From Candidatus Melainabacteria bacterium 17Bon1m (GTDB lineage Bacteria; Cyanobacteriota; Vampirovibrionia; Obscuribacterales; Obscuribacteraceae): DNA of 64,000 nucleotides. Below are positions 31,874-45,172 of this stretch, piece after piece. The translations under genes were made by a program, and so were the position numbers. The DNA lies in contig JAVLKG010000005.1 of the NCBI GenBank assembly GCA_032128875.1, forward strand, positions 64,001-128,000, read 5' to 3'. Every line of letters starts with the position of its first letter. The stretch's first letter is position 1. A model generated the notes under the pieces. That model saw only the letters and a program-made list of their open reading frames with translations, made no database searches and was not told where the DNA came from.

Positions 31874-32563
31874 CTAAGTCAGTGCTTCAAGATCGCACTC
31901 GATAACATAACCGGATGAAGGAATTGTTTTAACGAAATCCTCTCGGGACGCTGTTCCCAGCTTCTTGCGCAGGTTGCGCATCCAGCTTCTGACCGTATCA
32001 GTGGTCGCCTCATTTTCTGACGGCCACACGGCATCGAGCAGATCCTTTGAGGAGTAAACACGATTTGGATGGCGCATCAAGTATTCCAGAAGTGCGGATT
32101 CCTTGGGCATCAAGCGCACTTCTTGTTCTCCAATTCTCAATTTATGCAAGCTGGGATTGAGCATAATATCGCCAATTCTGAGCTCGTCAGGAAGAAGAAA
32201 CTGTGGGCGGCGCATGATTGTTTTCAATCTTGCGGAGAGTTCACGCATGTCAAAAGGTTTTACCAAATAATCGTCGGCACCTATGCCAAGCCCTTTTTCC
32301 TTGCTTTCAATGTCCCCTTTACCAGTAATAAAAAGGGCCAGGGACATTCCGCCGGCCTGTCTGTGACGCTTGAGCAGTTCGAGACCCGAAAGTCCGGGCA
32401 AATTCCAATCAAGCAAAAGCACGTCGTACTTGAAGTTGGAGAGCAGCTGCAAAGCGTCTTCGCCTGTGCCTACTCTTTCCACCTGATAGCCCTGGTCTGT
32501 AAGCCAATCGACTACTTGATTAGCCAGCTGAGGGTCGTCTTCAACTACGAGCAGTTTTGCCAC
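31874..32563 (-). CDS. OmpR/PhoB-family response regulator
   Basis: LLVVEDD, LLDWNLPG (phospho-Asp), GADDYLVKPF, winged-helix C-terminus; likely GTG start. Confidence 0.93.
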   Translation of the reverse strand: MAKLLVVEDDPQLANQVVDWLTDQGYQVERVGTGEDALQLLSNFKYDVLLLDWNLPGLSGLELLKRHRQAGGMSLALFITGKGDIESKEKGLGIGADDYLVKPFDMRELSARLKTIMRRPQFLLPDELRIGDIMLNPSLHKLRIGEQEVRLMPKESALLEYLMRHPNRVYSSKDLLDAVWPSENEATTDTVRSWMRNLRKKLGTASREDFVKTIPSSGYVIECDLEALT

Positions 32564-32668
32564 GATCAATACCAGTTTTTAACCCGTTCGAGTATAGCAA
32601 GGCGGAAGCTCACACTTGGCATTGAGTTTCTACTATTATCTAAGTGACCTTTATTGCTTGTTTATCAA

Positions 32669-34516
32669 ATGTCTGCAACTATTTTTACGCAAGTGCCGGT
32701 AGCAAGAAAGTTGTTGCTGCTTGTTTTGATTCCTTGCTTATTGCAGGCATTTTTCGTATGTGTTCTTGCTTTCATTTTGCAGAATGCGCAGAAAGAGTTG
32801 CGGGCTGTTGAGCATCAGAGAAACGCTCTTATCAGCTTGAAAGCCGCTGCCGGTGATGCGATTCTTGCGCTTATGCGTATTCAAGATTCGCGCCAAAAAT
32901 CAAATGTAGATGTTCATGTCGAGCTGGACAAGCTGAACAAGACGTTTAGAGAGGGCGACGGCATTGTCAGTGATCTCAGCGTTGAGAATTATCCCGAACT
33001 CGCAGACATCATTAAAGACGCGAATGATATGCAAGGAGACGTAGAGCTCCTCTTGAAGCAGGCGCAGGAAAACGTCAATAAAGTCAATCCTAAGACAGGC
33101 AAGAAAATAAAGCGCACGAAGCTGGTCGAGCGCACTTTGCTTGTTTCGACAATTCTGAATTGTCAGGCAATCGCCAAGCGAATCGTCGATGCTGAAGGCA
33201 GCACAAAGCAGTCTGACGTGGAGCGCGTCAACGCTGTTCAGAAGTCGGTCACTACTGCGATTTTTACGGTGCTTGGTATTAACGCACTGATCACGCTTCT
33301 CTTTCTCTACTTCTTCACCTCTGATATCGCGACCCGTTTGAAGATTGTTGCGAACAACACCCACAAGCTGATGCTTCCGAATTCGTCATTGAATCCTTGT
33401 CCCGGAGGCGATGAGATTGCTGCTCTCGATGCCTCGCTGCGGAAAGTGGCTCAACGGCTAGAGGAATTTCGAAAGCAGAAGTTGGCGATTTTGGATAACG
33501 CCATTGATGTTGTTTTCACACTCGATGAAAAATTCAGAGTTGAGGCGGTGAATAACGCCAGCCGTGAAAATTGGGGGCTTTTGCCCGATGATTTGCTGGG
33601 GCGAAATTTCCTTTCGCTCTTCACGCTGGACTACAGAGAATCAATCGGCAATCAGATTGCCGCATTGGCGCTGGAAGACTCGGCGCAGAAAAATATCGAG
33701 GCTGCAGTGGCACTACCCTCAGGTGCTGTCAAAATCTTCGAGATCACGCTGACAAAAACGCCAGAATCTATCGGTTTTACCGGTGTGGCACGCGACATAA
33801 CTCAGCAGAAAGCGGTCGCAGAGTTGAAAGAGCGTTTGCTTGCGATTGTCAGTCACGATTTGCGAACGCCGCTCGCGTCACTCTCAATTACGATGTCTGT
33901 GATTGTTGAGGGCAAGCGTATTGCAGACCCTGAGCTGCAGAAGAAACTTGCATCAATCGATTCATCAATTCAAAACGTCATGGCCCTTACTCATGACTTG
34001 CTCAGCTTTGAAAAGCAAGAGGCAGAACTATCAAGCATCGGTTTTTCGCGCGTTAAAGCTTATAACGTATGGTTGCAGCTAAAGCCGGTTTTGCAACCGC
34101 TTTGCCGAGAGCGCAATGTCCTGCTGAAAGGACCGTCTTCGGATGCGGAATTTCTCGCTAATGAAGACAAGCTTGTCCAAGCGACAAGCATAGTCGCAAG
34201 AACGGTCTTGAATTTTGCGCAGACAGATGCACAAATCAGTTTCATTATCGAGAAGGATAATGCTGTCGGCCGCATCAGAATTTTGCTGGATAATTTGTCG
34301 CAATCTGTCGGACCCGGACGAGCATTGGCAGAGCGTCTGCGTTGTGTCGAAGATGAACATATGTTCGACCCCGAGCACATCTCTATTGCAATAGCCAGAG
34401 CAATTGTCGAAAAACATCGAGGGCAGTTGATTTTTGCCGGCGACGGCAAAGGAGCAGAGCCGGGCGGTTTTGAAATTTCGCTCCAGCTTCCTTGCGTGGA
34501 GGAGGTTGAAGAATGA
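32669..34516 (+). CDS. Membrane PAS sensor histidine kinase with intact H-box and degenerate ATPase domain
   Basis: 2 TM, HAMP-like GGDEIAALD, PAS, SHDLRTPL; N/G1/G2 boxes replaced (RTVLNF, DNLSQ, PEHISIAI). Confidence 0.82.
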   Translation: MSATIFTQVPVARKLLLLVLIPCLLQAFFVCVLAFILQNAQKELRAVEHQRNALISLKAAAGDAILALMRIQDSRQKSNVDVHVELDKLNKTFREGDGIVSDLSVENYPELADIIKDANDMQGDVELLLKQAQENVNKVNPKTGKKIKRTKLVERTLLVSTILNCQAIAKRIVDAEGSTKQSDVERVNAVQKSVTTAIFTVLGINALITLLFLYFFTSDIATRLKIVANNTHKLMLPNSSLNPCPGGDEIAALDASLRKVAQRLEEFRKQKLAILDNAIDVVFTLDEKFRVEAVNNASRENWGLLPDDLLGRNFLSLFTLDYRESIGNQIAALALEDSAQKNIEAAVALPSGAVKIFEITLTKTPESIGFTGVARDITQQKAVAELKERLLAIVSHDLRTPLASLSITMSVIVEGKRIADPELQKKLASIDSSIQNVMALTHDLLSFEKQEAELSSIGFSRVKAYNVWLQLKPVLQPLCRERNVLLKGPSSDAEFLANEDKLVQATSIVARTVLNFAQTDAQISFIIEKDNAVGRIRILLDNLSQSVGPGRALAERLRCVEDEHMFDPEHISIAIARAIVEKHRGQLIFAGDGKGAEPGGFEISLQLPCVEEVEE

Positions 34517-36318
34517 GATTCAAGAACAGTTTGGTTCAGCAGGGTGTGTTCGTAATCGCCTTTCCTCTGATTTGCCAAGTCATCGTTGTCTTACTTCTTG
34601 CCGGCAATGTAGAGCGCATTCGTGATGAACAGCTGAAAACTGCCCACGCGCGAGACATGATTAGTATGTCGCACAGTCTGGTTCTTGACACCATACATAG
34701 TGTCTATGAGATGCATGTTGACTCGGAGCAAGTAGGAATGCTCGGGCAGGAAAGCAGTGTTCGAGAGACTTCTAAGATAGCCTTGGCAATTGCTGAAATG
34801 AAGAGAAAGGCGGAAGGGAATGCAGTCGAGTCTCGTCTGATGCTTTCGGTTGATTCGTCAGCGAGCGCACTTTTAGAGTGTCTGAGTTGGGCGGCTGTCG
34901 AGCAGGGAAAAGGTCGTGAGAATTGGAAGAGAGTGAACGACCGGTGCTACGAGACGATGAAAGAGAGTTCAAAAAATTTCGTCCAATCTTTGGAAGAACT
35001 TATTGATTCGCAAGAGCCTCTGATAAAGAAGGATACAACTGCCGCTAACAGTCAAGTGGTGCTGGTTCTCTTCTGTTTCGCTTTGATCAATTTTTTACTC
35101 GGTTTAGGCTTGGGCTTGTTTTATATCTCTCGGATTACAGGTGCGCTAAAACGTGTTGATGAGAACCGCATTCTGCTAGGAGAGCGCAAACCGTTATTGC
35201 CTGAAATATCAGCCCACGATGAGCTTATGCAGCTAGATCTTGCGGTTCATTCCGCCGCTGCCTCTCTTACAGCGGCGTTTGATGCAGGCGCTCGCATGAT
35301 TCGCGAAGCCGGCAATCTCATCTGTTCTCTCGACAATGATCTGTTGTTTCTTGAGGCAAACCCTGCTGCGAGCAAGATAATTGGGCTCGAATCAGAACAG
35401 CTGGTAGGCAGATCGTTGCGTGAGTTTGTCGATGGGGAAGTTATCGAAAAATTTCGAGAGGCTCAAAATTCTAGGGTCGAGTCTAAGCTGGAAGTGATTT
35501 TAAACAGAGCGGATGGTTCTAAGATCCACACGCAATGGGCAGTAAAGCCAGGTGATGCACCAGTGGCTCTTTTCTGTGTGGTTCAAGACATTACTGAGAA
35601 GAAACGCCGAGAAGGGCTGCGTCAGCGCTTTCTCGATGCTGTTCGCTCCAGCCTGCGCGCACCGATCGCTTCCATTGCCGACGCATTGCAGCAAGTGACA
35701 AATTCTGACAAGATTGCTGAAAGCGAGGGAAAGGCGCGCAATGACCTGGTTCGCGCTAATCGAAGTGCACGCCAGTGCATATTGCTTATTGACGTTCTCC
35801 TTGATGCGCAGAGTGCCGAGTCGGGGACGATTAAGATAGAGCCGTCGTCTGTTTCCTTTGGTCAGGTTGTTAATGACTCTATAGAGCTGGTCAAGAATAT
35901 TGCTGACAAAAAAGGGGTGGAAATTGTCCGCGAGTTGAAGGAGCTTGAGATTGTCTGTGACTCGTTCAAGGTGACACAAACAATCGTCAATTTCTTATCC
36001 AATGCAATTAAGTTCTCGCCTGAGGGTGGGAAGATCTTTGTAGCTATCGAGGATAAGGGTGACGCAGTCGAGGTTTCCGTCACAGATGAAGGTCCTGGGA
36101 TTGCGCAAGAATATCGCGAGAAGATTTTCAAACCGTTTGTCCAAGTACCCGGTGAGAAAGCGAAAGAGGGAACAGGACTGGGACTGGCTATCTGCAAGCA
36201 AATCATCGAAGGGCATCGAGGCGAGATTGGCGTGCGCCAGTCGTCTCGCGGCGCTACTGGCAGCACTTTCTGGTTCCGATTGCAGAAGAGTTTTGACGAA
36301 AAAGTTCTTGCGAACTAG
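34513..36318 (+). CDS. Membrane PAS sensor kinase with intact ATPase domain but no phospho-His
   Basis: H-box reads VRSSLRAPI; intact NFLSNAIKFS, DEGPGI, GTGLGLAICK and GSTFWF; ATGA overlap with the previous gene. Confidence 0.85.
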   Translation: MRFKNSLVQQGVFVIAFPLICQVIVVLLLAGNVERIRDEQLKTAHARDMISMSHSLVLDTIHSVYEMHVDSEQVGMLGQESSVRETSKIALAIAEMKRKAEGNAVESRLMLSVDSSASALLECLSWAAVEQGKGRENWKRVNDRCYETMKESSKNFVQSLEELIDSQEPLIKKDTTAANSQVVLVLFCFALINFLLGLGLGLFYISRITGALKRVDENRILLGERKPLLPEISAHDELMQLDLAVHSAAASLTAAFDAGARMIREAGNLICSLDNDLLFLEANPAASKIIGLESEQLVGRSLREFVDGEVIEKFREAQNSRVESKLEVILNRADGSKIHTQWAVKPGDAPVALFCVVQDITEKKRREGLRQRFLDAVRSSLRAPIASIADALQQVTNSDKIAESEGKARNDLVRANRSARQCILLIDVLLDAQSAESGTIKIEPSSVSFGQVVNDSIELVKNIADKKGVEIVRELKELEIVCDSFKVTQTIVNFLSNAIKFSPEGGKIFVAIEDKGDAVEVSVTDEGPGIAQEYREKIFKPFVQVPGEKAKEGTGLGLAICKQIIEGHRGEIGVRQSSRGATGSTFWFRLQKSFDEKVLAN

Positions 36319-36533
36319 CCACGTCTTTTAAACTAAATTTTTGAACTTAGCCAGGAGTTTCTATCTGAACTCCAATTAGTGCGCTCGCCGCAACGGCAAA
36401 CGGGTGCGTCGTTTTCGTGTGTTCAAGATTTGTTCAGTTGCCGGGCCGTACATTGCTGTCATCGAAGGCGGACTTCCCACCGCGAATGCAATAGCCCCCC
36501 TTGCACCCTCTTGCTACTTGGAGCGTTACTAAA

Positions 36534-37655
36534 ATGGCACTCGATACTCCTGTTTCGAACAACCCTGAAACTGCCGGCAGAGAATTTGCCACCAGAATCA
36601 ACGACGCCGTCAACCGCAATGATTCTAAGCTCTACAACGAAACGATGACCGGGATCAACGATTGGTCCAAAGCTAATGCTCCCTCATTGCATGGCAAATT
36701 TGAAGAGTCACTGATTGGCAATGTAGATTTGAAAACTGCTGCTTTGTATGAAACCAAGGAGAATTTCGGCAAGATTGACACAAACAACGACAAACGCGTT
36801 AAGCCTGATGAATTGTCTGCTTACACAAGCAAGCCTGAAACCAATGCACTTCAGAAGGCAATGGTTGAGAGGGAAATTCTTCCTCAGTACGAAGCTATCG
36901 CGAATAACAGCCGAGATAGATGGGGCAGCTCATTCATGCGTGACGATCATATTCGCTCGGTTGACCTGGCCAAAGGGCTGGAAACCGCAGCCTTGAACCG
37001 TCCAACACCAAACTTAAATGAGCAGCAAGTAGCCGAGAAAATGAAGGCGCCATCGTTTAAGGCGGAGTCTGACCAATTCTTGTCGGACAAATTCAGTGCA
37101 ATCGATACAAGCAATAACGAAAAAATAGACCAGACCGAATTGCAAACCTTCCGCGATGATCCAAAGCGCAATTTGTTGGAAAAGGCATACGCCGACAATG
37201 TTATGCCAAGATTCAGCGAACTTGCAAATACGAGCAAAGACAACCTCTTGAGCGGTTTGGGGCGCGCTGACACTGAGATTCGCAAGGGTGATCTGCAACA
37301 AAGTTTGGCAGCTGAATATGCAAAACCAGAAGTTCAGGCTGCGCTTGCCGAGGCTCGTAAACCTGAATTGCAGCCTAGCGACAAAGTACTGGGACTGGCC
37401 ACTGTTCGCAGAGGCGAAGGACCCTTCCACTCAGCTGAGAGGCTTTTGGCAGCTGCAGGCGGCAAGCATGATATTGACGAGGTTCGCGCTCTGACAAAGG
37501 CTTTGAAGAACATCTACAACGAAGAAGGTCACGGAGACCTCAAAGACTTGCGAGTGAAACACGGTTTTATCACGAAGGAAAACTTCAATAAGCTCGTAAA
37601 TACTGTGGATAACGAAGCCGTTAAAGAAGCGCTTAGAAAGCTGGCAGCAGCATAA
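36534..37655 (+). CDS. Protein with two EF-hand-containing repeats and a LysM-like C-terminal segment
   Basis: IDTNNDKRVKPDEL and IDTSNNEKIDQTEL in duplicated modules; ATVRRGEGPFHSAERLL. Confidence 0.6.
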   Translation: MALDTPVSNNPETAGREFATRINDAVNRNDSKLYNETMTGINDWSKANAPSLHGKFEESLIGNVDLKTAALYETKENFGKIDTNNDKRVKPDELSAYTSKPETNALQKAMVEREILPQYEAIANNSRDRWGSSFMRDDHIRSVDLAKGLETAALNRPTPNLNEQQVAEKMKAPSFKAESDQFLSDKFSAIDTSNNEKIDQTELQTFRDDPKRNLLEKAYADNVMPRFSELANTSKDNLLSGLGRADTEIRKGDLQQSLAAEYAKPEVQAALAEARKPELQPSDKVLGLATVRRGEGPFHSAERLLAAAGGKHDIDEVRALTKALKNIYNEEGHGDLKDLRVKHGFITKENFNKLVNTVDNEAVKEALRKLAAA

Positions 37656-37798: not shown

Positions 37799-39223
37799 TT
37801 GGTTTTTTCTGTGCGCTCTGCGTTTTACATATTTTCTGCCCCCCTCATACATTCCGCGCTTGTCGCGAGCTTATTTTTGCCGCCTTTCTCCGCTTTTCCC
37901 GTCTCTGCAGCCGTTAATTCTCCAGAGCCGGATGCGGCTGGGCAGGACACCGCCGCCGATGCGAAGGTGACTGAACTGTTGTTGAAGAGTGCCGGCGTGA
38001 AACCAATCAAATACGCGGATGAAAAGGCGCGTTTGCTTGATTATGTCCATCTGGGAAAGTTTTCCGATATTCACAAGATTTGCGATTCGAGAATTGCCAG
38101 CGGGACTGCAAAAGCTTATGAGTACCAGGCTTCAGCATTGGCGTGGTTGTATCAGATTCAGCAAGGCTCCGGAAAAGCCGTTCGTCTGTGTGAAGTAGGT
38201 TTGGAACATTACCCCGATGACCTTGACCTGTCATCAACGCTGGCTGTTTCTTACGCTCGCAATTTGCAGTGGCTGGCGGCACTCAAGCAATCTATCAAGG
38301 TTCTCGATGTTGATCCGAAGAACGTTCCGGCGCTTACCGTGAAAGCAATCTGTTTGCACCGTGGTGGTCGGGAAGACGCAGGTTTATTGCTTTTGCGGCG
38401 CGGGCTAGCCATCGATCCCGGCAATGAAGAAATGAATATGTTGATTGTGTTTTACGCAAAGATACGGCATAAGCGCGATGACGTTTACGTTGCGTTCGAT
38501 CGCTGGAGTCAGCTTAACCCACGCTCTGCTGTAAGCTACGCGCTACGCGGAGAGTATCAGTATGACGACTCCATACAAGATGCGGCAATGAAGAGTTTTC
38601 AAAAAGCGGTGTCGTTAAACCCTGAATACGTCACGGCCTTATACAAAATGGGCAAGTTGTACTGGAACAAGCAGAGCTGGTCTGCAGCCTGTGCGGCATT
38701 GCTGCGGTATGAAAAGCTCGGCGGACATAACGAAACTGGAATTGTGAAACTGCACGATTGTTTGATACGGACTAAACAGTATAAAGAAGCAGTCCGCATC
38801 GGTGAAATTGCTATTGAGATGCTGCTGGGTGAAAGTTCAAGAAGGGAAGAAGCGCTTGGCGTGCCGGGGTTTGCTGTAGTGCGCGAGTCGTCTTTGTTTG
38901 TAGAAAGTCAGGTGAAACTGGCAATCGCTTATTTCTACACAGGCGAAATTGCAAAGGCTACAAAACTTGTGAATGATGTCTTGAAAGCCCATCCGGACAA
39001 CGTCCCGGCACTTGATCTGAGTCAAAAAATTGCTTTCAAAAATCAGAATTATTCATCTGCCATAAGCACGCTGTCAAAATTAATAGTGATCGATGGCGAT
39101 GTTCAAATGTGGTATCAAATCCGCGCGGAAGCTTATAAGAAGCTGGGCGAAACTCAGAAAGCACAGAAAGATTTGGCGATTGTCGATTGTCTCGACAGGA
39201 CTGGAAGACTTCCCACCCAGTAA
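37799..39223 (+). CDS. TPR-repeat protein
   Basis: Many TPR units (A..LNP, LDVDPKNV.AL, AIDPGN); start uncertain. Confidence 0.85.
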   Translation: MVFSVRSAFYIFSAPLIHSALVASLFLPPFSAFPVSAAVNSPEPDAAGQDTAADAKVTELLLKSAGVKPIKYADEKARLLDYVHLGKFSDIHKICDSRIASGTAKAYEYQASALAWLYQIQQGSGKAVRLCEVGLEHYPDDLDLSSTLAVSYARNLQWLAALKQSIKVLDVDPKNVPALTVKAICLHRGGREDAGLLLLRRGLAIDPGNEEMNMLIVFYAKIRHKRDDVYVAFDRWSQLNPRSAVSYALRGEYQYDDSIQDAAMKSFQKAVSLNPEYVTALYKMGKLYWNKQSWSAACAALLRYEKLGGHNETGIVKLHDCLIRTKQYKEAVRIGEIAIEMLLGESSRREEALGVPGFAVVRESSLFVESQVKLAIAYFYTGEIAKATKLVNDVLKAHPDNVPALDLSQKIAFKNQNYSSAISTLSKLIVIDGDVQMWYQIRAEAYKKLGETQKAQKDLAIVDCLDRTGRLPTQ

Positions 39224-39363
39224 GGGAGCCGCATGCGGCTCCCCGCCAGGGAAGCGCATGCGCTTCCCCTACGATTCAAAAAAACGCATGCGCTTTCCCT
39301 ACGATTCAAAAAAGCGCATGCGTTTCCCCTACGATTGAAAGAAACGCATGCGCGACCTCTACG
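39221..39363 (-). repeat. Cluster of GTAG-type REP-like palindromes, 30-nt period
   Basis: Five CGCATGCG-centred units; CTACG recurs at 39269, 39299, 39329 and 39359 (GTAG on the minus strand). Confidence 0.8.
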
Positions 39364-41173
39364 TTCTGGGTGGTCCGTTAAGCGGGATTCTCAGCCAGAA
39401 TTCGCAGCCTTTCGGTTGCACGTTGCGCACTCCAATTTCACCGCCATGCGCTTCGACGAGTGCCTTGCAAATTGCCAAACCCAGCCCAGAGCCTTTCTTC
39501 TCGCCTTCCGAGCGAGTTCCGACCTGTCGATATTTTTCAAAGACGAGTTCGATTTTCTCCGGTGGTATTCCGGGACCTTCATCGCGAATTGAGAATTCAG
39601 CCCATTTTCCATCTTCGGATGGTTTTGCTATGAGAGTCACCGTGCTATTGGAGGGAGCGAATTTGATTGCGTTTCCCAGAAGATTTACCAGTGTGCGATT
39701 GATTCTCTCGCCGTCTGCTCGCACTTCGAAGCTCTCGCACTGCATGTCGAGTTTTATCTGTTTTTTCTCTGCGCTGGGCTCTACCATATCGCGGGCAATG
39801 TGAATGATTGACGACACAGGATGCGACTCGACATCAAGAGTCAGTCCACCGGCCTCGAAGTTTTCAACGTCGAGCAAGTCATTGATCATGTTGATCAGAT
39901 AGTCTGATGATTGCTGGGCGTTTTTCATAGTGGCCACACCACGCTCAGTGAGCGGACCATAGACGCCTTGTCCTGCGCATTCGATGATCAGTTTGATTGA
40001 CGAAATTGGAGTGCGCAAATCATGGCTGATCATCGCGAGCATGTCTTTTTTCAGGTTTTCCGCGGCGACTTTCTCAGTGATATCGAGGACGACGCAGAAG
40101 AATGTTTTGTCTTTCTCCGACCAGCTGGTCGTCCATTCTGTTGATTTGTAGTGCCCGTTGAGGTCTCTAAGCCGACATTCGAAAACTACTTCTTCTGATG
40201 AAAGCTTGCGTGTTGAGAGTTTTTCATGCACAAGATCACGATCTTCCGGATGTACAAGCGAGACTAAATTTGTCCCAATTATCTGTTCTGGTTCGTAGCC
40301 AAAACGCCTTGTTACAGCTGGATTTATTTGAGAAATTTTGCCTGATTGATCGAGCGAACAAATGACTTGAACTGTCCTATCAACCAGTGCGCGCTCTTTT
40401 TGTCTTGCTGCATCGAGTTCTTGCGCAATGGTATGAAAAGCGCTGTCCAGTCGCCCCAATTCGTCACTGCCGCCAATGGGCAGATGCAATTGTTTGCCCA
40501 TGCCCAGGTTCATCGTGTTGGACATGAGGACGTTCCACTTGCGTGAAAATCCGAGTGTCATCCACGTGGCGAAAGCAATCGCGAGCAAGACATTTGCCAC
40601 AGTCATGATTGAGATGGTCTCTTGTAGCTTGGTGCGGGCTTCTGATTGCGCTTTCTGCAGAGCGACTTGTCTTGTTTGTTGGTCATCCAGGAGCTCTTTG
40701 CCGGCGATCTCTATGCGCTTGTTCATGTTCATGAACTTGGCGACGAATCGCTGCTCGTTGACTTCGAACGTGTCTGCCGCGATGCCCGCGATACTCATTG
40801 AAGTCTCATTGATTTCCTGAATGATGCTGAGAAAGCGGTCGATTGTGGGCGGACGATTCGGCATTTGTGCAACTTCCTCTTGCAGTTGCTTCGAGTGAGC
40901 CATCAGATCTGTCGCGACCGATTGTGCTGCCGTGATATGCCTTTTGTCGTGACTCATTTTGAACAGCATTAAGCTGCCGCCGGCCAGGTTGGTTTCTTGA
41001 AACACCAGGGTAACAAGGGTCAGAACCTTGGATGCTTTATTCTGCTGCTCTATGAACGCCTGCAGCTCGGACAAGTTTTTCAAAAGCGTGACTAAAAACA
41101 CCGCCTCGATTAAAAGCGGCAAGATTATCGCCAAAAGGATTTGATGGGTTAGTTTGAGCTTTGGCTTTAGCAT
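39359..41173 (-). CDS. Membrane PAS sensor histidine kinase (intact)
   Basis: 2 TM, HAMP, PAS, SHDLRTP, NAIKF, DEGPGI, GSGLGL. Confidence 0.93.
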   Translation of the reverse strand: MLKPKLKLTHQILLAIILPLLIEAVFLVTLLKNLSELQAFIEQQNKASKVLTLVTLVFQETNLAGGSLMLFKMSHDKRHITAAQSVATDLMAHSKQLQEEVAQMPNRPPTIDRFLSIIQEINETSMSIAGIAADTFEVNEQRFVAKFMNMNKRIEIAGKELLDDQQTRQVALQKAQSEARTKLQETISIMTVANVLLAIAFATWMTLGFSRKWNVLMSNTMNLGMGKQLHLPIGGSDELGRLDSAFHTIAQELDAARQKERALVDRTVQVICSLDQSGKISQINPAVTRRFGYEPEQIIGTNLVSLVHPEDRDLVHEKLSTRKLSSEEVVFECRLRDLNGHYKSTEWTTSWSEKDKTFFCVVLDITEKVAAENLKKDMLAMISHDLRTPISSIKLIIECAGQGVYGPLTERGVATMKNAQQSSDYLINMINDLLDVENFEAGGLTLDVESHPVSSIIHIARDMVEPSAEKKQIKLDMQCESFEVRADGERINRTLVNLLGNAIKFAPSNSTVTLIAKPSEDGKWAEFSIRDEGPGIPPEKIELVFEKYRQVGTRSEGEKKGSGLGLAICKALVEAHGGEIGVRNVQPKGCEFWLRIPLNGPPRT

Positions 41174-41346: not shown

Positions 41347-42012
41347 ATGGCTAGAATTTTGGTGATTGAAGACGACCACACTCAGCTTGACATTATCGAG
41401 CAGGGGCTTGCGTTTCATGGACATGTGATTGATACCAGTGGTGATGGCACCGATGGTTTGGAACAGTTGCTCGCCCACCACTACGACCTGGCAATTATCG
41501 ATTGGGATTTGCCGGGGTTGCAGGGCGTGGACGTCTGCAACAAGTACCGGAACTCCGGCGGGCAGGCCGCTGTGCTTTTTCTCACTGGTAAGTCTTCGAT
41601 TACGAATAAGGTACAGGCGTTCGACTGTGGCGCCGATGATTATCTGACCAAGCCCTTTTCCTATGCAGAACTCCTAGCGCGCGTCAAAGCCCTTCTGCGC
41701 CGTCCACATGCGATGGAGAGTGAAAAATTCGTCTATCAAGAAATCACTCTCGATATGGTCACCAAAGTCGCCACAGTGAATGGAAAAGACATCGGGTTAA
41801 CACCGGGTGAGTTTGCTCTTCTAGAACTGTTTGTGAAAAACCCCGGGCGCTTGTTCGGAGCCGCCGAACTTTTGGACCGCGTTTTCAAATCAGAAACCGA
41901 CCAGGAAGCGGTACGCCAAAGAGTCATGCGCCTCAGGAAGAAGTTGGCGGTCGATGGCAAAGACGAATCGCGAATCACAACGCAAAAAGGCTTCGGATAT
42001 AAATTCGAATAG
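41347..42012 (+). CDS. OmpR/PhoB-family response regulator
   Basis: ILVIEDD, IIDWDLPG, GADDYLTKPF, GFGY. Confidence 0.93.
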   Translation: MARILVIEDDHTQLDIIEQGLAFHGHVIDTSGDGTDGLEQLLAHHYDLAIIDWDLPGLQGVDVCNKYRNSGGQAAVLFLTGKSSITNKVQAFDCGADDYLTKPFSYAELLARVKALLRRPHAMESEKFVYQEITLDMVTKVATVNGKDIGLTPGEFALLELFVKNPGRLFGAAELLDRVFKSETDQEAVRQRVMRLRKKLAVDGKDESRITTQKGFGYKFE

Positions 42013-43413: not shown

Positions 43414-43570
43414 TATTGCACAACTGACAAAAAAGCCCCCTATGCCCCGTCCGGCTTGGATTTGGGCGCCCGGGCACCCCGACCGTTATTTGAGTGTTAT
43501 GTAGCGGGTGCACACTGAATTTCCCCAGGCACCTCGCTGTCTTATCCCCGGACAGCGACATAGAGAGGAC

Positions 43571-45172
43571 ATGCGTATGGTTCTTACGGCTGCGACAGAC
43601 AGCTCTCCCAGTGCATTTGAATTTGGGGAGAAACAGTCGAAATTCGACGAAAAGAACGAAAAGTCAGAAAATTTCAATTTCCTGGATTTGTATTTCCCCA
43701 AGCACGAGGCGGTGGCTTTGGGTGGCGCCCTTGCAAAAGCTGGTGAAGCGATCGGCGAAGTTGCAGGTAGAGTCAAAGTAAAAGGCACTGACCAACTGCC
43801 AAAAGTTTCAATCGATGATACTTCCAAAGAAGCTGTTGGTATTGCAAATGGTGCCACGGTGGAAGGCGGCGGCAAGCCTGCGCAAAAGCCTGAGCCCACG
43901 CTTGCAACCAACCTCGAAGTAATTCAAATCGCCCGCGCACACTTCAAAGAATTCGATGCTAACGGCGACGGATTTATAACCGAAAGAGAACTTGCGAAGC
44001 AGGTTGAAGATCCAAAGCACACGGGTGTAATGGCGCAAGCAATCGCCGCATTCTACGGCACACATTCGAAAATGGATTTGTCGGCTGACGAAGATTCCGC
44101 CTTCCGGGGATCTTTCGGAATCAGCCGCGCAGACCTAGACAAGGTCGAAGAAGTTATCAAAAAGAAGCAATCTGGAATTGTCGAAAACACATTGGGTGTA
44201 GCCTATCTCGACTCGCTGGATATCAACAAAGATAGGCGTCTGCAGTCCGGTGAAATTCAAATTGCGTTGCACAGAGACTATTTGCCGGAAGAAGAAAAGG
44301 AACTCTTCGAATATTTCATCAAAAACGAGGAGAATGAAAGCCCAGTCAAAATAAGCGACGTGCTGCATTATTTCTCCAGCAAGAAACTGGGCGACAAAGA
44401 AGATGCGATGCTCAGCAAAATGAACTTCTTGATGCGCCATGTTTGGGAAAACCAGCATAACGAAAAGACCTTGTTTGCAGAAGGCAAGGAGAATGACGGT
44501 ATAGGCTTACACGGAATTCAACAAGGAATCATGGGCGATTGCTATTTGTTGGCCTCAATTGCGGCTGTTGCAGAAATGACCCCAGAAACGATAAAGAACA
44601 TGATTGTCGATAACAAGAACGGCACCTACACAGTCACCTTTCCGGGCGCCAAAAACGAACCTCAAACAGTTTGCGCCCCAACCGAAACAGAACTCGGTCT
44701 CTACAATGGTTCGACAGAAAACGGAATTTGGGGATCTGTTATTGAAAAAGCGTATGGGCAATGGTGCAAGGAGAGTTTCACCCGACGCACGCCTCTCAAT
44801 TGGACCGGCGGTTTGACGACCGCTGAAGGTGCAGATGGCGGAGGCTGGCATTTAGATCGCGTTCTCAAACTTCTTACCGGCACGGATGCAGACCAGGACT
44901 GGAACGCTTTTACTTTCAATTCCACCACCCGCCGAAAGCTTCTAGAGCACGTAACTGGCGATGACAAAGTACCGGTCGTTGCCTGGCAAAAATGGTTTCG
45001 CGAGTTTGGTGTGACCGGGGTTGCGAATCACGTCTACAGCGTTTTGGACTTCAATCCGGAAGGCAAGGACGGTGGCACTGTAACTCTATATAACCCTTGG
45101 GGCCACAAGGAGTCCATCACATTCAAGCAATTTACAAAACGCTTTACCGCCTTCGCCTACAGAAACAGGTGA
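43571..45172 (+). CDS. Calpain-family (C2) cysteine protease with N-terminal EF-hands
   Basis: QQGIMGDCYLLAS (Cys), NHVYSV (His), YNPWG (Asn); DANGDGFITERE and DINKDRRLQSGE EF-hand loops. Confidence 0.88.
   Translation: MRMVLTAATDSSPSAFEFGEKQSKFDEKNEKSENFNFLDLYFPKHEAVALGGALAKAGEAIGEVAGRVKVKGTDQLPKVSIDDTSKEAVGIANGATVEGGGKPAQKPEPTLATNLEVIQIARAHFKEFDANGDGFITERELAKQVEDPKHTGVMAQAIAAFYGTHSKMDLSADEDSAFRGSFGISRADLDKVEEVIKKKQSGIVENTLGVAYLDSLDINKDRRLQSGEIQIALHRDYLPEEEKELFEYFIKNEENESPVKISDVLHYFSSKKLGDKEDAMLSKMNFLMRHVWENQHNEKTLFAEGKENDGIGLHGIQQGIMGDCYLLASIAAVAEMTPETIKNMIVDNKNGTYTVTFPGAKNEPQTVCAPTETELGLYNGSTENGIWGSVIEKAYGQWCKESFTRRTPLNWTGGLTTAEGADGGGWHLDRVLKLLTGTDADQDWNAFTFNSTTRRKLLEHVTGDDKVPVVAWQKWFREFGVTGVANHVYSVLDFNPEGKDGGTVTLYNPWGHKESITFKQFTKRFTAFAYRNR

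Follow-up and report, generated by a model that had tools for sequence, protein, structure and literature searches.

Reciprocal motif losses in adjacent sensor kinases of Obscuribacterales are consistent with a heterodimeric histidine kinase

Sensor kinases are taught as homodimers. In two-hybrid tests, FasB and FasC of group A Streptococcus form heterodimers but not homodimers; FasC His246 is required, the FasC kinase domain and the membrane domain of one partner are dispensable, and the model proposed is that the FasB kinase domain phosphorylates FasC His246, in a paper that calls natural kinase heterodimers rare (PMC12675982). ATP binding and the phospho-acceptor reside on two proteins, neither of which works alone, in CheA3/CheA4 of Rhodobacter sphaeroides (PMC3591291); the same source predicts HisKA proteins without HATPase but with an HE/DxxN/T motif as possible bifunctional split kinases, from a screen that targeted missing domains and not adjacent reciprocal pairs. 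The HK1/HK2-TcrA system of Mycobacterium tuberculosis (Rv0600c-Rv0601c-tcrA) joins two kinase genes to one regulator (PMC9321153, PMC3544749). Here, we describe a locus of Candidatus Melainabacteria bacterium 17Bon1m (Obscuribacterales), an uncultured relative of the cyanobacteria that does not photosynthesize, in which two neighbouring kinases, HK-A and HK-B, have each lost what the other retains. The window is the whole 64,000-nucleotide stretch analysed (assembly GCA_032128875.1, contig JAVLKG010000005.1, positions 64,001 to 128,000), and coordinates given without a contig refer to it. HK-A, the upstream 'alpha' subunit, keeps the phospho-histidine on DHp, the domain that carries the H-box, and HK-B, the downstream 'beta' subunit, keeps the ATP-binding domain (CA); this reciprocal loss is confirmed. 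With a probability of roughly 70%, judged from patterns of conservation and loss, the two would be partners in an obligate heterodimer, HK-B phosphorylating HK-A in trans and the phosphate passing on to a divergently encoded OmpR-type regulator. Below, G000 is the genome under study, C-numbers are its contigs, other G-codes are related genomes and L-codes are fetched loci.

Like the FasB/FasC-FasA locus, that of HK-A and HK-B comprises two adjacent kinase-like genes and one regulator, and in both systems the phospho-His and the working ATP-binding domain lie on different subunits, as judged for HK-A/HK-B by sequence and conservation. The pair does not belong to the Fas family, whose proteins have six transmembrane (TM) helices and a ComE-like regulator, whereas HK-A and HK-B combine two TM helices with a helical sensor and a PAS domain, next to an OmpR-type regulator. 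FasB still has histidines and could act in cis on H284, and the FasC CA is dispensable by deletion, whereas both losses of HK-A/HK-B are visible in the sequence; moreover, Fas is a single system, whereas the Obscuribacterales split has arisen independently at least five times, in either orientation and also as fusions. The claim of the first-pass annotation that no reciprocal pair of class I membrane sensors had been described, therefore, needs trimming, since a heterodimer model has been published for FasB/FasC (PMC12675982). CheA3/CheA4 likewise place ATP binding and the phospho-acceptor on separate polypeptides, but they are soluble class II proteins with whole domains missing, whereas HK-A and HK-B are full-length class I membrane proteins that lost motifs and kept their domains (in a further pair, on C16, the CA is deleted). 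HK1/HK2-TcrA shares the three-protein design; HK1 is the ATP-binding part only and HK2 the His part only, like halves of one gene, whereas HK-A and HK-B are two full-length paralogues with their own sensors. No paper on reciprocal kinase pairs in Obscuribacterales or Melainabacteria was found in a literature search that had most subscription journals outside it and that did find Fas and split CheA. What is new relative to known systems is the 61:0 rule of loss described below, the repeated origins and the fusions; a single such pair is of moderate interest, and the lineage-wide repeated splitting and fusion is the notable part.

Profile searches bear out the motif losses read in the first-pass annotation. 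HK-A keeps the SHDLRTP H-box (HisKA, 44 bits), has lost its N, G1 and G2 boxes and gives no HATPase_c match at E<=0.1, whereas HK-B gives a HATPase_c match of 92.6 bits with N, G1 and G2 intact and a HisKA score of just 14.4 bits, under the Pfam cut-off. On a CA profile built from the intact kinases of G000, HK-A scores 7.4 bits, HK-B 122.5 and a nearby kinase of the same architecture 132.6; this last kinase, proposed earlier as an internal control, does carry all motifs, and in the tree it groups with neither alpha nor beta genes. The H-box of HK-B reads RSSLRAP, the His (to Ser379), the Asp at +1 (to Ser) and the Thr at +4 (to Ala) all being gone together, and that of HK-A retains all three residues, which make up the HE/DxxN/T phosphatase motif (PMC3591291). 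As class I (HisKA) kinases, both proteins have the membrane sensor and the DHp-CA fold; the phospho-accepting His is present in HK-A (His396) and not in HK-B (Ser379; Ala in the G009 orthologue), and the N, G1 and G2 boxes are present in HK-B and not in HK-A.

Both reading frames are open, HK-A from ATG 32669 to TGA 34516 (615 residues; the open reading frame finder had chosen TTG 32654) and HK-B over 601 residues, and the two proteins are 23% identical. Of the TM-HAMP-PAS-DHp-CA architecture and ATGA coupling proposed earlier, the two TM helices and PAS of each protein, the open frames and the overlap (34513-34516) stand, and HAMP is called by Pfam in neither protein (at E<=0.01, in 2 of 34 HK-A-like and 0 of 34 HK-B-like sequences); a HAMP segment is suggested by a motif and by a helix-loop-helix in the AlphaFold model. 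In the model of HK-A, the dead CA still has an alpha/beta fold that resembles solved kinases, and a Foldseek search with this model did not separate cis from trans kinases. Pfam gave no match on the sensor domain of either protein; their ESM Atlas look-alikes are CHASE3, 4HB and TarH domains (0.93-0.95, 134-153 shared features), taken as a lead only, and both sensor domains look like four-helix bundles of the CHASE3/4HB kind in these predictions. An assembly or sequencing error was considered and rejected; it is unlikely because contigs of other sequencing runs match the locus exactly (X12 over 32838-36706, X1 and X3 over the whole locus, 0 differing letters in each) and orthologues carry the same substitutions.

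Relatives with the same reciprocal losses, proposed earlier as a check, were found. Of 12 genomes of the same genus, 4 have an HK-A orthologue and 5 an HK-B orthologue (the fifth truncated by a contig end), and 3 of 17 metagenome loci are orthologous, two of the three being near-identical to genomes already counted; with these queries, G011 (93% complete) gave no match for the regulator, HK-A or HK-B. The first-pass annotation held that intact or randomly decayed orthologue motifs would speak against a split kinase; the aligned orthologues all share the reciprocal state, which is identical in the five orthologue lineages. Against G007, the proportion of non-synonymous differences (pN) is low in every domain (0.04-0.22) and far below that of synonymous differences (pS, 0.64-0.94), synonymous sites being near saturation. 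Within HK-A, DHp is best conserved (94% identity) and the dead CA least (64%) yet under purifying selection; the His-less DHp of HK-B is 86% identical, and the N-terminal regions are 81% and 75% identical for HK-A and HK-B, both sensor domains being conserved. By these comparisons, HK-A and HK-B are under purifying selection along their whole length, and so is the dead CA of HK-A.

The regulator gene runs on the minus strand from GTG 32563 to 31874 and encodes Response_reg and Trans_reg_C domains, with Asp52 at the phospho-acceptor position. Its orthologue occupies the same divergent position in G007, G005, G012, L055, L056 and L057; it was found in 3 of 12 same-genus genomes, in two others the contig ends before it, and regulator and both kinases are jointly absent at the syntenic G002 site. 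The regulator is, therefore, likely to be the cognate partner of the pair. The intergenic region has a mean column identity of 71% in a 5-way DNA alignment; a consensus promoter scan gave no excess (4 against 4.5 in shuffles), and a terminator scan gave 12 against 7.1 +/- 2.6 expected, none clearly positioned. About 30 nt directly 5' of the HK-A start in four orthologues, a conserved block included, are missing from the window (32640-32668).

The pair is one case of a pattern within a large kinase family. G000 encodes 139 kinase-core domains, of which 97 belong to the membrane family of HK-A and HK-B (81 intact, 7 His-less and 9 CA-less). All 7 His-less family domains adjoin or are fused with a CA-dead, His-bearing domain, in 3 gene pairs and 4 single-chain fusions; of the two CA-less cases left over, one is a gene next to a kinase whose H-box has decayed and the other is a frameshift. 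The fusions, each of a CA-dead His-bearing and a His-less CA-intact kinase, lie at C1:32680-35691, C1:524832-527495 (most of the dead CA deleted), C12:35723-38725 and C18:14568-17552; AlphaFold of the last (994 residues) gave a mean local confidence (pLDDT) of 80.3, a global score (pTM) of 0.51 and a low-confidence linker at 494-512, and returned no geometry. In the reciprocal pair at C16:10151-12636, kept in four more genomes of the genus, the first gene (336 residues) is without a CA domain, and a further pair of G000, at C3:112321-115916, has retained the opposite route. An N-terminal-profile search of G000 found 7 extra proteins, none adjoining a family kinase among the matches listed; one that was checked is a chemoreceptor. 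Alternating alpha-beta pairs also stand in tandem arrays (two pairs at C15:11817-19214; three at G007:C43, L025), and three fused reciprocal genes are clustered at G002:C58 (L296); such arrays and clusters might permit combinatorial pairing.

Across relatives, a survey that began with 182 adjacent family domains, from which 22 (array junctions and four cut or duplicate loci) and 20 (CA cut off) were dropped and duplicates collapsed, left 127 distinct adjacent or fused pairs. Sixty-one are reciprocal (39 split, 22 fused), 58 intact and 8 carry a single loss, and in 0 do both losses fall on the same chain. Clustering of the reciprocal pairs gives 24 groups at 40% identity, or 20 at 35%; the pairs come from at least eight genus codes. 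When an intact kinase was used as the query in five genomes (G000, G061, G065, G083 and G103), 21 of 40 pairs were reciprocal, 17 intact and 2 single-loss, with 0 same-chain cases among the matches listed (one of the searches gave the best 150 of 230 matches). Linkers of the 22 fused reciprocal pairs are mostly about 30-60 residues, and intact-intact fusions occur too. Three candidates were set aside or requalified: L200, as a pair of an intact and a His-less kinase, was rejected, its His-less domain being the first half of a fused reciprocal protein; the 'CA loss' of L301 is an insertion artefact, although it is still among the 8 single losses; and C19:57470-58934 is not a pair but one frameshifted gene, its HisKA split in two by a break inside DHp that may be real or an assembly error, and it was left out of the counts. 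Outside the pair counts, L268 (G103:C21:48768-53073) holds a His-bearing, CA-truncated and a His-less, CA-intact kinase, convergent on opposite strands.

These counts bear on whether two duplicated kinases decayed independently and complement each other by coincidence. Decay does occur in a genome with 139 kinase-core domains and one frameshifted family member; against coincidence stand the open frames, the persistence of both losses in five lineages whose synonymous divergence is saturated, the 61 reciprocal against 0 same-chain pairs, and fair-coin odds of 0.03 for five origins alone and of 0.008 for the 7 pairs of G000. We consider this explanation extremely improbable, and neutral decay was rejected on the purifying selection and the 61:0 pair counts; the earlier argument that undisrupted frames speak against simple decay is thereby upheld.

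The complementarity extends to the chains taken singly. In a set of 232 distinct domains, full N, G1 and G2 boxes accompany the missing His in 58 of 59 chains, the exception sitting on a run of N, and the His is retained in each of the 61 chains whose CA is dead or has partly decayed. Neither figure is predicted if HK-A is a phosphatase or relay, regulated by HK-B as a nucleotide-binding pseudokinase, and another kinase feeds the regulator. Models for such an arrangement exist: DivL is a His-less pseudokinase and so resembles HK-B, and ChpT and Spo0B, soluble, sensor-less proteins fed by a receiver domain, keep the His with a degenerate CA and in this resemble HK-A, whose TM helices, sensor and PAS under purifying selection set it apart from them. 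ChrS (PMC9491836) and RetS-GacS (PMC12675982) are, like the pair proposed here, heterodimers of paralogous kinases. Favouring a phosphatase with a pseudokinase are the HE/DxxN/T motif kept in HK-A, the CA-truncated ChrS pseudokinase, which is functional and heterodimerizes with HrrS (PMC9491836), weak matches of 3 of 34 alpha-group sequences to Pfam HPTransfase, and five His-less proteins of other G000 subfamilies that have no reciprocal partner (C1:326330, C2:1098728, C3:302161, C11:4452 and C12:133347; the second lies near a 545-residue receiver-domain protein). The invariant ATP lid of HK-B is, however, not predicted either, and the operon is without another kinase, the nearest intact one having its own regulator; DivL, ChpT/Spo0B, ChrS and RetS-GacS act on or beside intact kinases, whereas HK-A and HK-B are coupled to each other with no intact partner in the unit. 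We regard this alternative as rather improbable.

HK-A and HK-B descend from tandem alpha-beta pairs, both members of which are intact in many relatives. Their nearest paralogues lie in intact tandem pairs, that of HK-A being the upstream and that of HK-B the downstream member; in the trees, the alpha genes, which lie upstream, group together (SH-aLRT 98), and the beta genes, which lie downstream, make up a second group. Within the alpha group, the HK-A/HK-B pair resembles the L260 lineage in having lost CA-alpha and His-beta, whereas the C3 lineage lost His-alpha and CA-beta, as did the G002 pairs L305 and L306, neither of which is placed on the tree. On a 44-row tree with the H-box masked, 5 changes are needed for each loss, and approximately unbiased (AU) tests reject placing the His-less rows in one clade (p 1.5e-31) and likewise the CA-dead rows (p 8.6e-10), so that a single origin of either type of chain was rejected; the trees were made with FastTree and a quick IQ-TREE run without a mixture model, and their deep branches are poorly resolved. 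The losses are, on these trees, placed at no fewer than five events, in both orientations, and five is a minimum because PAS-less families were left out of the 44-row tree.

A trans dimer that loses one of its two routes becomes a reciprocal pair, whereas a cis dimer that loses one route is left with a dead and an intact chain. A cis mechanism is, therefore, disfavoured, because His and CA losses never share a chain (61 against 0). Intact alpha-beta pairs would, on our proposal, already be heterodimers with two redundant trans routes, from CA-beta to His-alpha and from CA-alpha to His-beta; lineages would have dropped one route repeatedly, HK-A/HK-B keeping the first. HK-B would bind ATP and phosphorylate His396 of HK-A in trans, His396 would hand the phosphate to Asp52 of the regulator, the H-D-x-x-T helix of HK-A may double as the phosphatase site, and its dead CA may stay as a structural or allosteric module. 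Translational coupling would give a stoichiometry of about 1:1, and the two different four-helix sensor domains would form one asymmetric input. Four-helix sensors often bind ligand at the dimer interface, and a composite ligand site is as likely here as the AND gate suggested in the first-pass annotation. The obligate heterodimer is favoured because of the 61:0 pattern, the complementarity of His-less and CA-dead chains, an H-box that tracks its partner, the fusions and the translational coupling. The tracking was seen in 52 intact pairs, in which H-box quality correlates with the CA of the partner (pooled rho 0.25, p 0.01) and not with the protein's own CA (rho -0.13), kin among these pairs not being independent. 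The fusions and the coupling fit a fixed 1:1 unit, and the repeated origins together with the fusions suggest that intact tandem pairs are heterodimers too.

Prediction of the HK-A/HK-B complex gave 0.52 against 0.00 for the best control, with contacts agreeing by at least 89% between runs and pLDDT of at least 79 for the partners. Of 157 solved pairs, 116 attain the pass mark, as do 2 of 215 mismatched pairs; passes at 0.60 or below come from only 18 of the solved pairs and from both mismatches. Of the comparison of hetero- with homodimers proposed earlier, the run covered the A-B side and lends that side weak support. An alternative is a kinase split between homodimers, in which HK-B homodimers would bind ATP and, touching HK-A homodimers only transiently, phosphorylate them in the manner of CheA4 and CheA3; HK-A would then be a membrane phospho-acceptor with its own sensor, a stable heterodimer would be unnecessary and a cis-handed DHp bundle could be accommodated. 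This arrangement would account for the reciprocal losses, and for the genes being present or missing together, with no need of trans handedness within a dimer; relatives of the WalK type act in cis, and CheA3/CheA4 is such a bipartite kinase (PMC3591291). The strong conservation of the His-less DHp of HK-B (86% to G007) speaks for the heterodimer instead, as do the fusions, the coupling at 1:1 and the division into an alpha and a beta group, which favour a fixed pair, and the weak structural support for A-B contact (0.52). Such transient contact between homodimers appears unlikely, marginally less so than the phosphatase and pseudokinase arrangement above.

Several observations weigh against an obligate trans heterodimer. 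The pooled pair sample behind the 61:0 count was enriched by degenerate kinase queries, and fully dead partners could evade profile detection. In L075, the closest counter-example, an intact kinase is followed by a CA-dead partner whose H-box has decayed though its His is retained, which leans towards cis. Likeness to textbook kinase dimers, common among solved structures, can account for the 0.52 score. The link of the regulator to the pair is one of synteny, in a genome that holds 132 regulator-like matches. Runs labelled as RNA (two of the four from one sample that contain the stretch) gave contigs of about 20 kb that run flat through genes and spacers alike, as DNA would, and are uninformative about transcription. 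The closest solved relatives of the HK-B core are VicK/WalK and HK853, which are PAS-DHp-CA HisKA kinases like HK-A and HK-B, but homodimers with both functions on each chain. The CA-DHp contact of WalK is in cis (PMC5633905), as opposed to the trans contact implied by the loss pattern of HK-A/HK-B, and the DHp hairpin of HK-A is as long as that of WalK (family mode 50 residues). Hairpin lengths overlap between the two modes (cis PhoR 48 and ArcB 47, trans ZraS 48 and NtrB 47; assignments of Escherichia coli kinases from PMC5956149 and PMC12314577) and are not diagnostic, and a right-handed DHp hairpin means trans autophosphorylation according to PMC12314577, citing Ashenberg 2013. In sum, the loss pattern points to trans and the homology to WalK points to cis. 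Hairpins span 47-60 residues in His-less chains and 49-51 in the His-bearing chains of reciprocal pairs, and the HK-B orthologue of L024 (G009:C381) has a 9-residue insertion in its hairpin.

With these points counted, heterodimerization with trans-phosphorylation, as put forward in the first-pass annotation, probably holds, given the conserved orthologues, the 61:0 pair counts, at least five origins in both orientations and the fusions. The coordinates of the locus are collected in Table 1.

Table 1. Features of the kinase pair locus and of the neighbouring control kinase (window coordinates)
Feature	Position	Strand	Basis
OmpR-type response regulator, 229 residues, Asp52; likely cognate partner of the pair	31874..32563	-	Pfam PF00072 and PF00486; same divergent position in orthologues
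Divergent intergenic region, 105 bp, conserved blocks, likely promoters	32564..32668	.	5-way DNA alignment
HK-A: TM, helical sensor, TM, HAMP-like, PAS, DHp with His396, dead but folded CA	32669..34516	+	Pfam, CA profile, model
HK-A H-box SHDLRTP, His codon 33854-33856	33851..33871	+	Invariant in 5/5 aligned orthologues
HK-A decayed N, G1 and G2 boxes (N 34190, G1 34286, G2 34370)	34190..34393	+	N-box Asn missing in all 8 orthologue sequences (window's own included)
HK-B: TM, helical sensor, TM, HAMP-like, PAS, His-less DHp, intact CA	34513..36318	+	Pfam, CA profile; ATGA overlap with HK-A
HK-B His-less H-box RSSLRAP, Ser codon 35647-35649	35644..35664	+	No His in 5/5 aligned orthologues, nor in L055 and L057
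HK-B intact N, G1, F and G2 boxes	35989..36204	+	ATP-lid/G2 stretch (residues 541-563) invariant across ~61% identical orthologues
Control kinase, intact, architecture as HK-A/HK-B, not part of the pair	39359..41173	-	Own divergent regulator 41347-42012

Directly after HK-B lies a gene for an EF-hand-like protein (36501-37655), and an EF-hand calpain-family protease is encoded at 43508-45172; both genes are syntenic in relatives and both are retained in G002, where the kinase pair is missing. Palindromic repeats of 30 nt are clustered at 39216-39353, in the gap where the TPR gene and the control-kinase gene converge; G011 has similar short matches in many places, as do other contigs, and the repeats are likely a REP-like element.

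Taking the family as a whole, we lean, by a modest margin over even odds, towards the view that Obscuribacterales have built a receptor class of obligate heterodimeric kinases, strictly trans, asymmetric and with one phosphorylation site per dimer, from which one route was shed repeatedly. Evolution would then have run the classic laboratory complementation test over and over and arrived at a single result, 61 reciprocal and 0 same-chain pairs, and asymmetric alpha-beta receptors would be a bacterial parallel to kinase/pseudokinase receptor pairs. If this holds, ordinary-looking tandem kinase genes may be heterodimers, and gene-by-gene annotation would call both halves pseudo-kinases. A natural one-site kinase would let the asymmetry and half-of-sites behaviour of kinase dimers be studied without engineering, and a trans family with a hairpin of WalK length would probe the loop rule for cis and trans. 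The cis or trans mode would be readable from genomes alone, here for a family that has cis-acting kinases as its nearest solved relatives, and two different sensors on one kinase would offer a template for two-input or composite-ligand signalling.

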